The translations under genes and the position numbers were made by a program. DNA of 62,667 nucleotides, filler included, from Hausera hauseri (lineage: Eukaryota), in NCBI GenBank assembly GCA_046269625.1. It is 9 parts of 9 records of this genome, joined end to end, with 100 filler letters (N's around TTAATTAATTAA, not from the genome) between each part and the next. Parts side by side here need not be neighbours in the genome. Positions count along the whole stretch, not along the records: positions 48,600 to 58,389 come from JBJURY010289947.1; 8 more parts are not named here. The stretch is one strand, 5' to 3'. The notes under the pieces are model-generated. The model was not told the DNA's origin and did not search any database. It saw nothing but the letters and a program-made list of their open reading frames with translations. Below are positions 48,600 through 53,422 of the stretch, one piece after another. How positions within the stretch are numbered: the first letter of the stretch is position 1; the number at the start of each line of letters is the position of its first letter.

Positions 48600-50036
48600 C
48601 CTACCGTATTTACAATTTCCTCTTAAAAAATACGAACAAGGTTTTTGATTCGTATTTTTACAATTTCTCTTCTCATGTAGAAATGTACATGACTCACCAA
48701 GACGACATCTACCGATTTCAAAATACTTACAAGGCCTTTTATGGTTTCCTAAATTTCTCCGAAAACTGTCATTTCCTTCATTTCTATCTTCTTTGGTGTT
48801 TATTCCAGTTTTATTTGTTCGTTTAGATTTTTCTATTTTCCCATTAGTATAAAAGGAATTCCTTATCGACTTTTCGGAGTGTTTATCTTTGTTTGACATT
48901 AGTACGTTTATCCCATGAACTCCTTCTGCAGCTATACGTTTTAGTTCTGCTTCTTTCTCCACCCATGCTTTTAGGTTATGTACGTTTCGCTTCTTTTCTT
49001 TGTCTTCTCGATAACGTTCCCACGTTAATACCATAACTTCAGGTAGTTTTTGAATTAGATTTTGATACAGTAATCCACCTTCCAACTCTGTCTCTCGATC
49101 TAAATTTTTCAGTCTCACGATGACTGAATCTAATAATGTGGTGAAAGAATCCAACTCTTTGATATTGTGTACACTTATTTTTTGGAATCCCATAACTTCT
49201 GACATAAGAGATGCGTAGTTCCTATGGTTTCCCCCATAATACCGTTCCAGTTTTTCGAGTGCTGTTTTGTAGGAAGTTTCAGAAAGATCGTAATTTTGGA
49301 CTAAACGTTTAGCCTCTCCGTATAAACAATTTTCCAGTTGAATTTGTTTATCTATACTGGAAAGTGATGTTTTATCTACGCACGTTTTGAAGATTTGTCG
49401 CCATTTTTCAAACTCAGCGACATTTCCACCGAATTTTGGGAGTTCAATACGTTTCAGTTTAGGTGCTAGATACTCATTACGAGTTTCCTTTTCCTTCTTG
49501 TCTTCTAGGGTCGTAAAGTTCTTCATATGAATCATCTTTATCACTTCCTCATTTTGTGTCTCAATGTTTTTGGATTCATCGACCAATTCTGCCAATTCTT
49601 CTTTTTTCTTCAACTTTCTAGCGAGTAGCTTCAAGGCGCTGAGTTCTATGGAGAGTTTTTTAAAGATTTCGTCATAATTATCATTTTGTTGTAGAAATTC
49701 GTCTTCCGTCAGTCTTCCGTTCATCAATGATTTCCTCTGGATGGTTAATTCAAATCTCAATACATCTTTTGCCAAAAGCCTACCTTCGAAGTCATCAACT
49801 TCATTAATACTTCCTCCTTTTAGTCCATGAGTGACATTTAAGCTCGTTCCATGTGGGATTCTATGTAAAGTCTCATAATCTCCCCATTTTTTGTTTTTGT
49901 GAATGATTTCAATTTCCTCTATTTTTACGTGACATTTCTTAGATATTTTCCGCTTTAGTGAGTTAATAGACTCAGTTTCATCAACATCAATAACTATGGG
50001 GGGTTTTGGTTTACTTTTACAATTATTTGTTTGCAT
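48600..50036 (-). CDS. Ubiquitin-like domain fused to BEL/Pao Gag with CCCH zinc fingers
   Basis: IVIDVDETESINSLKRKISKK..IEIIHKNKKWGDYETL..GTSLNVTHGLKGG, then LKRIELPKFGGNVAEFEKWRQIF (BEL gag), then CKYFEIGRCRLGESCTFLH. Confidence 0.85.
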
Positions 50037-53000
50037 TTGAATTCCGATAATTTGTTAACATTCTTAACGTCTGATGATGAATTAAACTTTATACCACCTC
50101 CACAGTTCGTTTTCTTCATTTTACTTTTTGTGATTTTCAGAAATTCCTCCTTAGTATTATAAATTTTTTTTAACATGTCTAACTTATGTGGTTTTACCAA
50201 CATAAGTTTAGATATTTTTGATTACTTTATACTGAAGATTTGGTTATTCCTGTCATGTGATTGAGATCCCCTTAAAAGGTTTTTCAATTTTTCGTTTAGT
50301 GTTATCTTCTCGTCGACATACGAATAATCTACACATTGGTTGTTCATCAATTTGAAGAGTCTGCTATTCAACATCTTACGACAACCGTCATCCTTATTGC
50401 AATTTAAAACGTTATTATTGGAATTGACATTTACAGGTATATGTATATACCCATTTAAAAGGTACATATACATCCCAACTCTGGTATTTACATAACCTTT
50501 ATTAGATAAATGACCCCCCCCCCACAGATAATTGATTACTCTTATTACCTACTGAACGCCCAATTATCCTTCGTGTTATTAATATAAGTCTGGCGTGATA
50601 TATGGATATGATGTAATTTATATATGTTAGAATTGGTAACTCTATACGAATATGGACCCATTAAAACAAAATACTCTTCTAGAGGGAAAATGTGTTCATT
50701 AAATAGTTTAACGATTTTAATTATTCGCCCGATCGTACAGACTTTATAATTATGAGAGGGTCTTTTATAGTTCTCATGACTTAAACACAGGACTCGAGAG
50801 GGGGACAGAAACAGCCGACAACAGTATACGACAATGTTACAATTTCTAACCTCTAATGTATTGACCTGTTCACCAGATCTAAGTCGGATGTCGTTTTCCG
50901 TATTGATCCTCAAGAATGAACCCAACTCAAACGAATTCCAGAACATATTTCCACCAGCACAGTACTGATAATTTTCGCGATGATGTCCATCGCTCATCCA
51001 ATCGTAGAACAAGACGTACTGAACCGTTTTTATGAAATCGACGAGTATCTCAGATTTTTTGAGGGGATCTGATACCCTATCACAATCAAAAAATGCGGTT
51101 CTAAAGAGAACCATTGCCATTCCCTTAGATATATTCACTTCTTCCTCACATTTTCCTTTCTTTGAACTTCTTGTATTAACACTTTTCAAGACACCGGAAT
51201 TGTCTGTTCGTTTAATTGAACTATATCGACTTTCGGAGGACAGCCCCTCTTCTCTCTTAGTCTTATCTCTACGCTTTGTTTCAATTTTTGAATTCTCAAT
51301 CAAATATTCTCGATTACTATGTAAAATGTTCGTATATTTGTATACAATAGACTTCCCATTAACGATCTCGTCTAAATTTATCGTCTCGTTGGAACATATT
51401 TGAATAATATAGGATATTATTTGTATTTTTTGGTAATCATACGTGAGAATTTTGAAATATTTCTCGAGTACAAGCAATACTTTACATTTACAAGGATTAT
51501 CATCCATGGTCAAACTCTTGTCTTTCGATAGCTATGTCAATTTTCTGGTCAAGGACATTACTTTAGTACTCTTTAAGACGTTTGGACATCGATCTGAATT
51601 TTCTGGTTCCCATTCAGAACGAATGAGTTGGTCGCATAACGCTTTAAATTTTACAATACAAATGATGAAACATTCACTAGGAATTAATAGTTCTTCGTCA
51701 GTAGTGAAATGTAACTTTGAGCAAGAATACGTGAGCAATTGAGGTCGTTTAGCCGGAATTTGTCGCACAAACTCATTTTTAATAATTCCGAGGTATCTTA
51801 ATTTCAAAGGACATACGTTATGAGATAGTTCGATCAAGGGGTCTTTTAATAATTCGGACATTTTTAATTGGACACATTCTAACAAAGTCTTTGAATGAGC
51901 TGACGTATGATCGTCACACAATATTTCTAAAGCTTTGGTTCCATCTAACTTCGCACATCTAGGGATCTTTTCTCCGTTCAGAACATTATCGATTTTTCCA
52001 ATAAGTTTTTCAATTAGTGTATTATCGTTTTTTGATGTTAAATTCGTTCCATCACTCTGATGTGATCTCTCGAAATATGTCTCAGTAGAATGACCCGATA
52101 TTTCTGGTATTAGTCTAATTTGATTTATCATAAACGTATCCTTTGATAAACGATAATAAGTCCCGTCACGGGTGTTGAAGGGCACCTTCGATTTAAGAAT
52201 TTGTAAACCTTGATTCATTCGTTGTGATGACATCCCCAATTGTTTCAGGTCCATCTTATTTCCTTTTCCGACCTGTCGTGTATTACTAAATATCTTTTCA
52301 CCGTTGAGAAAATTTAAAGTTAACAAATATCGAGGATTAATAGTACCATTTGTAACCCAATCATTAATCTCTAGAATATATGGGGAACCGTCTAATATTT
52401 TCTGAGCTATCGAACGAATTCTTTCAACATCTGAGTATAAATAACTTCCCAAGATGTTATGTTTTGACAATTCTGTGAAACAATTTTTGATATGTATATG
52501 AGAATTAGTATGAAAATCATCAGTATACTTTCCTATAATGACACTTTTAAGAATTTGATTTTGAATATAATAGAGAAAAACTTTATGATCAACCTTAAAA
52601 ATGAGTACGATCAAGTTGGACAGAAAAGGATACTCATACTCTACTTTTTTAATGTCGTTATATAGAATGATCAGCAAACACATTGTATAACTAACATCTC
52701 TCGATATTTTGAACATTACCGATAAATTCGAGAATTTTACAACATCGCTAAAATTCATATTATTATCATTCTCAATGTTTTCACGTAAAAGGTAATTATT
52801 CATAATAGCAATATTTCGTTTCAATTTTTACAATCTTTTAATCCTAAATCTCTCACCAAGACATTTTCTTTCATCTCCGTTTGGGTTTCTAATTTTCGAA
52901 CGAATTTGGTAAAAACATCAATTCGAATCAACTTGACCAAAACTGATTTTGTCATAATAACGGTCAATTTTTTTTGGACCCACATATCATACCCTGTCTC

Positions 53001-53422
53001 AGATTTTCTGACAAGAGTTTTTTGTAAGTTTTGTCATTCTTTAATGTATCTATCCTTTCAGTTTCATCTTTTTTATGAACTTCGTTATCAGAAAATAACC
53101 ATGAATTGTTCAAATTCAGCATATTCTTTAACTTTTTGTATTTGATATATGTATATTTGATATACATAAACAAGTGTTTTCTTTGAAACGTACGATTGAA
53201 TAATATCTGTATATCGGAATAAGTATCGGATAACTCCGTCATCATATAACACCTTCTAACCAAATAGGTGTTGAAGATTTCTATCTGTAAATTTGTGGAG
53301 TGACGAATAAATTTCTCTTTTCTGTATTTCAATAATGTCCCACCTGAGATGCCATTTAATGTTCGTCTCAGTATAATATTGCCCATTTCTTTATTGATCA
53401 CATTTTTCTCACAATCCTTCAT
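50000..53422 (-). pseudogene. Unknown ~1,100-codon leader upstream of Ubl-Gag
   Basis: Five consecutive minus-strand ORFs (152, 430, 322, 83, 69 aa). The 430- and 322-aa ORFs are in frame, separated by one TAG. Other breaks are at or near A/G homopolymers. No family is recognised. Confidence 0.6.

Follow-up and report, generated by a model that had tools for sequence, protein, structure and literature searches.

The window, that is, the whole stretch of 62,667 nucleotides of Hausera hauseri DNA that was analysed, contains on a single contig (positions 48600-58389) a BEL/Pao element with a long stretch of decayed coding DNA, probably a leader, upstream of its Gag (Table 1). As an earlier note on this DNA had claimed, the unit is circularly permuted, the contig ends being identical over 77 nt; its length is 9,713 nt. 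Profile searches recovered the Pao-type Pol order PR-RT-RH-IN (DUF1758/Asp protease; RVT_1; Peptidase_A17, E 1e-49; Integrase_H2C2; DUF5641, E 1e-19) and the DUF1759 Gag capsid domain (E 4.7e-18). The catalytic motifs read in the window are LLDDAS/IIGAD in the protease, YMDD, FCDAS and D-D(about 47, counted by eye)-E, to be compared with the BEL/Pao motifs (LLD..+IG protease, YxDD, DAS, long DD-E spacer; PMC554778). The search for Pol relatives returned 942 matches at E 1e-20 or better, and PF05380 occurred in all 120 among the matches listed. In a tree built by a quick method, with 49 of the 56 intended rows and SH-aLRT support only, the window Pol groups with elements of sponge, abalone and clam. 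The element is a divergent BEL/Pao lineage of an animal.

Table 1. Features of the circular BEL/Pao unit, with positions counted along the window.
Feature	Position	Strand	Basis or remark
BEL/Pao LTR element, circular contig opened inside gag	48600..58389	-	77-nt identical ends; N spacers both sides
Gag: helical N-part, DUF1759 capsid region, first CCCH finger	48600..49811	-	38-73% identical to P0122-P0124
Putative Ubl domain ending LKGG, frame change near 50000 inside	49812..50032	-	Pfam, PDB, P0123, two-sequence profile
Proximal leader E+F, K/N-rich, internal stop 50224	50033..50548	-	in frame with first Ubl strand
Leader piece D, 328 codons, orphan	50548..51531	-	stop-free frame; frame of C resumed after one stop
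Leader piece C, 431 codons, orphan	51535..52827	-	stop-free frame; composition unlike gag-pol
Leader piece B, 70 codons, other frame	52824..53033	-	stop-free frame; bridges A and C
Leader piece A, 152 codons from ATG 53422	52967..53422	-	no Pfam/NCBIfam family
Candidate single LTR, 347 nt, TGT...TCA	53465..53811	-	TATA 53506, AATAAA 53489; 3' end inferred
Candidate polypurine tract, TGT directly after	53812..53826	-	only purine run + TG in non-coding gap
Non-coding 3' spacer past pol	53827..54284	-	codon periodicity absent, p 0.42
RT, RNase H (Peptidase_A17), integrase, DUF5641	54285..56924	-	profile matches; one frame change in RT near 56900
Second CCCH finger, aspartic protease, RT start; gag carried on across circle junction	56894..58389	-	family profile matches, frames

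Upstream of gag, the minus strand is nearly continuously coding from 53422 into the Ubl-Gag frame, as the earlier note had described, and the path that starts at ATG 53422 and leads to the Ubl, whose first codon is at 50032, comprises 1,130 codons with six breaks. Markov simulation of the region, repeated 2,000 times, gave no frame longer than 230 codons, as compared with the 431 and 328 codons of pieces C and D. The stop-free spans are 53476-52967 for A (170 codons, containing ATG 53422; p about 2e-7), 50548-50225 for E (108 codons) and 50221-49997 for F (75 codons), and the Ubl-Gag frame is open over 50054-48600; E and F together are open over 183 codons with at most one stop (p about 7e-7). 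C and D form a single frame cut by the stop 51534, similarly to E and F, cut at 50224. The codon-position bias is significant in C and D (p 0.001 and p 0.006), but not in A (p 0.12) or E+F (p 0.07), and the codon log-likelihood against gag-pol did not tell the leader frames apart. The leader of about 1,100 codons is of coding origin and is decayed in the window copy, the one element copy from which the window evidence on leader and Ubl-Gag comes. Six of the seven breaks fall in the leader, whose share of the total coding length is 38% (p 0.016). Its four frame changes lie near 52970, 52828, 50548 and 50000, and share their direction with the one in RT. The proximity of breaks to homopolymers, also put forward earlier, holds at long runs for two of the four (A8 at 52975-52968; C6 at 50003-49998); the B/C change adjoins a short A run, and the D/E change (50548) lies 25 nt ahead of a G10 run (50523-50514), outside it.

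Three ENA contigs (P0122, P0123 and P0124) carry Gags that are 38%, 44% and 73% identical to that of the window, respectively. The Ubl/Gag Gly-Gly site is reached by two of them, and an upstream extension by one: P0123 encodes a 162-residue leader, a full Ubl and Gag in one unbroken ORF, whereas the P0122 sequence opens within the Ubl and closes with a CFAP58-like coil, and P0124 begins past the Gly-Gly site. The charged P0123 leader is unrelated to that of the window (473 of 1,000 shuffles score as well).

Several lines of evidence, each match being weak alone, point to a ubiquitin-like domain, similar in sequence over the beta-grasp and the C-terminal Gly-Gly. First, Pfam ubiquitin matched over positions 11-54 (E 0.0055; 16.9 bits for a Pfam cut-off of 25.4), and residues 12-76 of PDB ubiquitin aligned to the window Ubl with the Gly-Gly matched, so that nothing ahead of residue 12 (PDB) or position 11 (Pfam) is matched in the gag frame. 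Second, the missing first strand was found in frame F, as KQIIVKVN against KQIIVYYN in P0123 (6/8 identical); its score was equalled by none of the 3,285 other 7-residue stretches of the leader in three frames, the motif having been picked by eye beforehand, and reading across the frame change with an X lengthened the alignment and lifted its score from 189 to 203. Third, LKGGS at the Ubl/Gag border is common to the window, P0122 and P0123, in Ubls only 27% identical. Fourth, a profile of two Ubls matched ubiquitin, RUB1 and ISG15 over nearly their full length (single domains at E 0.002-0.03). The P0123 Ubl alone had no match in Pfam, PDB or Atlas; its model shows strand-strand-helix at 164-194 with a pLDDT below 50 and found no match at E 0.001 in a fold search. 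The complex prediction of the two Ubl pieces scored 0.24. Because the Ubl appears to straddle the last frame change, and P0123 is a single ORF, the proximal part of the N-terminal extension claimed in the earlier note is supported as fused to Ubl-Gag; that note's single leader of about 1,100 codons is not shown, since the D/E junction fits a lesion or an ORF end equally and A-D gave no relative in the searches run. Judging from these alignments, the proximal leader is in frame with the putative Ubl, which is fused to Gag through a conserved LKGGS. The single ORF of P0123, together with the LKGGS shared by the window, P0122 and P0123, the two relatives extending to the border, argues for leader-Ubl(GG)-Gag as the architecture of the lineage.

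The nucleocapsid carries two CCCH fingers in both the window and P0122, and the triple Cys-His (CCHC) box is absent from that of the window. This box is the hallmark of BEL/Pao nucleocapsids, Tas being the published exception. Among the 21 Pol relatives covering the nucleocapsid region, 17 have CCHC and none has CCCH. The replacement of the hallmark knuckles offers a direct test of the nucleocapsid chemistry needed for packaging.

The upstream 960 or so codons of the leader have no homologue detected in the searches run. C and D read through with X gave no match at E 0.001 among 1.84 billion protein representatives, none at E 10 in PDB, and none in Pfam, PHROGs or NCBIfam, nor in phages; pieces A, B, E and F, scanned against family libraries only, gave a best E of 0.016, which is not credible. 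In Atlas, piece C scored at best 0.77, to Mucoromycota hypothetical clusters (a lead only), with a recognition of 2572, a level met by 91/100 known-family proteins and 9/100 shuffles. The single-sequence AlphaFold model of C+D (pLDDT 31) is too low for use, and the four Rfam matches over 49900-54400 are all far below gathering. Neither a second leader copy elsewhere in the window nor internal repeats between the leader pieces were found. C-D has a weak A skew (0.07 versus 0.21-0.26), a CpG of 1.3 versus 0.9-1.0 and fourfold sites that differ from gag-pol (p 0.016); E-F is akin to gag-pol both in its skew and at fourfold sites (p 0.61), and does not differ from A-D at the latter (p 0.62). An env-like ORF was considered and dropped: the leader has no terminal hydrophobic segment or transmembrane anchor (peak 19-residue hydropathy 1.83, mid-C) and no env family in Pfam.

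Regarding the position of this extra DNA, frames of at least 65 codons cover the whole circle except 54287-53849 and 53641-53477. Two purine run + TG patterns exist in the circle, one of them inside ORF D and the other being the candidate polypurine tract, from which we infer the position of the LTR. The LTR features were judged as in PMC3601003 and PMC554778; the BEL/Pao criterion is two LTRs of 0.2-1.2 kb and a polypurine tract, and the collapsed circle yields one candidate LTR, of 347 nt and with a polypurine tract, whose ends are provisional. A primer-binding site (18 nt, tRNA-Arg or -Gly) was not seen at the candidate LTR end as CA+TGG or TGG-N10-GG, and the window holds no host tRNA for comparison. 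As the polypurine tract with TGT, TATA, AATAAA and TCA lie in the only non-coding gaps, between pol and 53422, the extra coding DNA is probably located 5' of gag.

We propose, with a probability of about 45%, that this divergent lineage translates leader, Ubl, Gag and Pol as one polyprotein, with a Ubl junction cleaved by the host and a cargo slot. LTR elements are expected to cut their polyprotein by their own protease. Here, the Gly-Gly end of the Ubl would be the processing signal for a host ubiquitin/Ubl C-terminal protease, and the cut past Gly-Gly would free Gag with a constant N-terminus regardless of the upstream sequence. Since the N-terminus of Gag would thus be fixed, the slot ahead of the Ubl would tolerate cargo, of at least 162 charged residues in P0123 and about 1,130 codons in the window. 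By its appearance, C-D may be coding DNA that was captured from a foreign source and that now decays more quickly than gag-pol. If true, such a junction would explain the tolerance of unrelated N-terminal cargo. We consider doubtful the bolder version, in which the host-cleaved Ubl socket carries a captured protein of a thousand residues, released ending in Ubl-GG and possibly conjugatable, with a switch from CCHC to tandem CCCH for packaging.

The closest competitor, somewhat less probable than our proposal, leaves the Ubl mechanism unchanged with a smaller fused leader: A-D (about 958 codons, 53422-50548) would be a separate ORF0, followed by a Gag-Pol with its own leader of about 150 residues and Ubl-GG. 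Plant Ogre elements have an accessory ORF0 5' of the capsid region. Three stops (50547, 50544 and 50538) are clustered at the end of D, ATG 50473 in E would yield a 147-codon leader similar in length to that of P0123, the D/E junction lies away from the long G run, and the gag-pol-like composition is that of E-F and not of C-D. On the other hand, E opens exactly where D closes, with 25 open codons ahead of its first ATG; the D/E frame change has the direction of the other four; E-F is not distinct from A-D at fourfold sites; and the downstream Gag-Pol would require splicing or internal initiation.

We regard as improbable the placement of A-D behind pol, as a 3' accessory ORF expressed from a spliced RNA, with an LTR past D (G10 as polypurine tract) or deleted. 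When LTR elements carry additional genes, these mostly lie at the 3' end (PMC8742986 and, as far as the consulted part of it goes, PMC5408684), upstream of ATG 53422 there is a splice-acceptor-like run of pyrimidines that ends in AAG, G10 sits 25 nt past the D stop and is followed by AATAAA, and a primer-binding site was not found at the preferred site. However, no TG follows G10, the openness of E+F leaves no space for an LTR of 0.2-1.2 kb, and the ordered LTR-like signals occupy the only non-coding gap. The 3' accessory ORF that the earlier note had kept as its alternative is weakened accordingly, and its env version is unsupported.

Still less probable is that an unrelated sequence, A-D or C-D alone, entered at a later time, or that the contig was mis-joined there, the segment having no role in the element: the missing homologues, the distinct composition, the breaks commoner than in gag-pol and the single contig would fit, but no terminal repeats of at least 12 nt were found between the two insert ends tested, nor any transposase or RT family, the frames abut throughout on one strand, and the circle closes as a single unit. 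Programmed recoding in an intact element is very improbable, in spite of the shared direction of the five frame changes and slippery-looking runs at some of them, as Ubl and RT are each split where relatives run continuous, two in-frame stops are left over, and no stimulatory hairpin occurs at three of the four sites (z 0.94, -0.62 and 0.73; -1.98 at the fourth).

In the literature covered (with Repbase, GyDB, subscription journals and bioRxiv supplements outside its scope), we found no BEL element with Ubl-Gag, CCCH-Gag or a 5' ORF. Similarly to Belpaoviridae (Sinbad, Pao, Atlas virus), the window element has the PR-RT-RH-IN order, Peptidase_A17, DUF1759, DUF1758 and DUF5641, a single gag-pol ORF, a unit below 10 kb, a candidate 347-nt LTR (TGT...TCA) and a Pol 42% identical to its best match. 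It differs from them by the leader and putative Ubl-GG before Gag, by a pair of CCCH fingers in place of the triple box, by extra coding DNA that is probably 5' rather than a 3' env, and by the lack of a recognised primer-binding site. Burro giant elements of planarians and plant Ogre elements belong to the Gypsy superfamily, unlike the window element; in addition, the Gag of Burro is N-terminal with CCHC knuckles, and its Ubl lies internally and does not form a junction that releases Gag. A parallel is provided by cytopathic pestiviruses (BVDV strains Osloss, CP1 and CP Rit), where, according to the part of PMC8310069 consulted, ubiquitin inserted in the polyprotein is cut from NS3 by cellular hydrolases and thereby sets the next N-terminus. 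These are RNA viruses with recent, near-exact and strain-specific host ubiquitin, whereas the window Ubl is strongly diverged and conserved in its lineage; by analogy with these insertions, the Ubl-GG junction before Gag, if true, would mean that a retrotransposon relies on a host protease for one step of its processing.

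The window's nine short contigs, separated by N spacers, are made up mostly of mobile elements, and only that at 48600-58389 has identical ends (77 nt). This contig is a 9,713-nt assembly circle opened inside gag, which bears out the circular permutation proposed in an earlier note, and it presumably represents a collapsed multi-copy repeat. A search of 7,590 candidates for relatives of its Pol yielded 942 with E-values of 1e-20 or better (top identity 42%). In a quick tree of 49 rows this Pol forms a long branch within a group of 35 rows (SH-aLRT 96), which takes in sponge, abalone and clam elements, with the insect elements falling outside. 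One frame change lies inside the reverse transcriptase (RT). The five frame changes of the element all have the same direction, which mutational bias or systematic homopolymer read error could explain.

Features of the BEL/Pao element and of its leader
Feature	Position	Strand	Remarks
BEL/Pao gag-pol	contig 48600-58389	minus	DUF1759, DUF1758/aspartic protease, RT, Peptidase_A17, integrase zinc finger, DUF5641
Purine tract	53826-53812	minus	TGT directly after, at 53811
Candidate LTR (347 nt)	53811-53465	minus	TGT, then TATA (53506), AATAAA (53489), GT-rich stretch, TCA (53465)
Leader piece A	53476-52967	minus	
Leader piece B	53033-52824	minus	
Leader piece C	52827-51535	minus	
Leader piece D	51531-50548	minus	
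Leader piece E	50548-50225	minus	
Leader piece F	50221-49997	minus	
Ubiquitin-like domain (Ubl)	50032-49812	minus	ends LKGG

The leader, which extends from the ATG at 53422 to the Ubl upstream of Gag, consists of six abutting stop-free pieces (A to F; 1,130 codons in total), the breaks being two in-frame stops and four changes of frame. The near-continuous coding sequence previously noticed from 53422 into the Ubl-Gag frame is a real feature, its longest frames reaching 431 and 328 codons vs. a maximum of 230 in 2,000 simulations. The stop-free lengths of E+F (p about 7e-7) and A (p about 2e-7) are also well past chance. Codon-position bias is significant in C and D, and the same test gave no significance in A or in E+F. 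Six of the element's seven breaks sit in the leader, which represents 38% of the coding length (p 0.016). A leader of a thousand residues is plausible, and its protein is broken in this copy.

Searches for Gag relatives (about 8,000 candidates scored in each) returned one and two proteins. The relatives used here, P0122, P0123 and P0124 from ENA contigs, have Gags 38%, 44% and 73% identical to that of the element. The gag frame matches ubiquitin from residue 12 only, through the terminal Gly-Gly (Pfam ubiquitin positions 11-54, E 0.0055, below the cut-off). In P0123 a single unbroken ORF encodes a leader of 162 charged residues, followed by a complete Ubl and then Gag; the first strand of this Ubl (KQIIVYYN) matches the end of frame F (KQIIVKVN) and has no match in the gag frame. 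The score of this motif, which was seen before scoring, was equalled by none of the 3,285 other leader windows in three frames, and reading through with X lengthens the alignment. Because the first Ubl strand matches frame F, and not the gag frame, F, together with E in the same frame, is part of the Ubl-Gag ORF. The window, P0122 and P0123 share LKGGS at the Ubl/Gag border, although the complete Ubls of the window and P0123 show only 27% identity; P0124 begins downstream of this border. A profile built from both complete Ubls retrieved ubiquitin, RUB1 and ISG15, with E-values of 0.002-0.03 for single domains; the P0123 Ubl searched alone gave no match in Pfam, PDB or the Atlas, and the P0123 structure model has low confidence over it. 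In P0122 (residues ~720-1016) a coiled coil resembling CFAP58 (PF21771, E 2e-18) is fused to Gag-protease, which we read as an element that has probably landed in a ciliary gene of the host or forms a chimera with it.

The proposal that the leader is an N-terminal extension of Ubl-Gag thus stands for E and F, and for A-D a fusion appears only slightly ahead of a separate ORF. The question hinges on position 50548, where the frame of D closes and that of E opens. That A-D form a separate 5' ORF upstream of Gag-Pol is a tentative alternative: D is followed by three stops, and translation from an ATG at 50473 would yield a 147-codon leader resembling that of P0123, but one lesion could explain a D/E switch at a single shared point.

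Wherever the fusion ends, we place the leader DNA 5' of gag, with a probability of about 0.85, from the LTR-like signals lying in the only non-coding gap. First, apart from two stop codons, the circle is without a frame at least 65 codons long in only two regions, 54287-53849 and 53641-53477. Second, BEL/Pao LTRs measure 0.2-1.2 kb, with a polypurine tract (PPT) of about 10 nt, according to the ICTV (PMC8742986), and Sinbad LTRs are 386 bp long and run TGT...TCA (excerpts of PMC554778). Third, AATAAA together with a GT-rich stretch is the general animal LTR pattern, BEL lying outside the models (excerpts of PMC3601003). A 69-codon open frame (53848-53642, minus) spans the PPT into the candidate LTR, and a tRNA-primer-shaped TGG-N10-GG at 53770, 41 nt past the TGT, is probably there by chance. 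The earlier suggestion of a 3' accessory ORF is, for A-D, unlikely. In its favor, no primer-binding site (PBS) was found at the candidate LTR, the pyrimidine tract ahead of ATG 53422 is reminiscent of splice acceptors, and 25 nt beyond the stop of D there is a G10 run; however, no TG stands behind this G10, and E+F leave zero non-coding space. An env was rejected, the region having neither terminal hydrophobic segment nor family match. An unrelated insertion or mis-join is improbable, and programmed recoding at the frame changes hardly credible, a downstream hairpin being absent at three of the four sites.

Within the roughly 960 codons upstream of E, no relative of C+D was found among 1.84 billion representatives, PDB, Pfam, PHROGs, NCBIfam and phages. 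An Atlas search gave leads only (scores of 0.77 or less; protein-like recognition value), the fold model of C+D was unusable, and comparison of the window's leader with the P0123 leader revealed no relationship. The A skew, the CpG level and the fourfold sites (p 0.016) of C-D are unlike those of gag-pol, which suggests captured coding DNA, although amino-acid make-up may contribute to the difference.

Elsewhere in the window, contig 5781-14915 carries a Gypsy-like pol followed by extra ORFs, namely 7563-9441, the end of which is hydrophobic and anchor-like, and 9442-11886, an intact 814-codon frame that encodes a RING finger (Pfam E 3e-6). The frame at 13179-13637 (minus), which by eye resembles a GIY-YIG endonuclease remnant, gave no match in a Pfam search. 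Contig 15016-22725 has a Gag-like start, ~4 kb of broken coding DNA without family assignment, containing an 85-nt duplication (17644/18140), and a Monjiviricetes-type fusion glycoprotein (21229-22122; PF24664, E 2e-24); no RT was seen among the frames scanned. Contigs 1-5680 and 58490-62667, about 74% alike across several kb, read as Polinton-like relatives, one of them matching a protein-primed-type DNA polymerase B. Contigs 36428-40400 and 40501-48499 are related, heavily broken gypsy elements (integrase about 75% alike), and an LRR ORF lies at 29808-30536.

The element works like a BEL/Pao member in its Pol and capsid, but its nucleocapsid, like that of P0122, has two CCCH fingers and no CCHC knuckle. 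Among the other Pol relatives, 21 extend far enough to cover the region; CCHC occurs in 17 of these and CCCH in none. The triple Cys-His box, in excerpts of two sources the hallmark of BEL/Pao, Tas excepted (PMC554778; 10.64898/2026.03.22.711591), is missing, and the circle shows a single candidate LTR and no recognised PBS, so we class the element as a variant within the BEL/Pao branch and not as one of its typical members. From the conserved Gly-Gly, and by analogy with cytopathic BVDV, where inserted ubiquitin is cut from NS3 by cellular hydrolases (excerpts of PMC8310069), we propose that a host ubiquitin-type protease most likely cuts the polyprotein after Gly-Gly. Gag would be released with a constant N-terminus, and the slot upstream of the Ubl would be free to vary or decay. 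Extra domains are already known in LTR elements, according to excerpts of the sources cited: a SUMO-like domain within the giant gypsy polyprotein of Burro and extra ORFs in Ogre (PMC6431247), varied 3' ORFs in rotifer elements (PMC5408684) and a captured AlkB in orchid gypsy elements (PMC9289625). "Ubiquitin" is absent from the main text of three BEL/Pao surveys (PMC3118150, PMC6238403, PMC8556966), and no BEL element with Ubl-Gag or CCCH-Gag was found in the literature; Repbase, GyDB, subscription journals or bioRxiv supplements may describe one. What is firmly new is a conserved architecture, leader-Ubl(GG)-Gag(CCCH).
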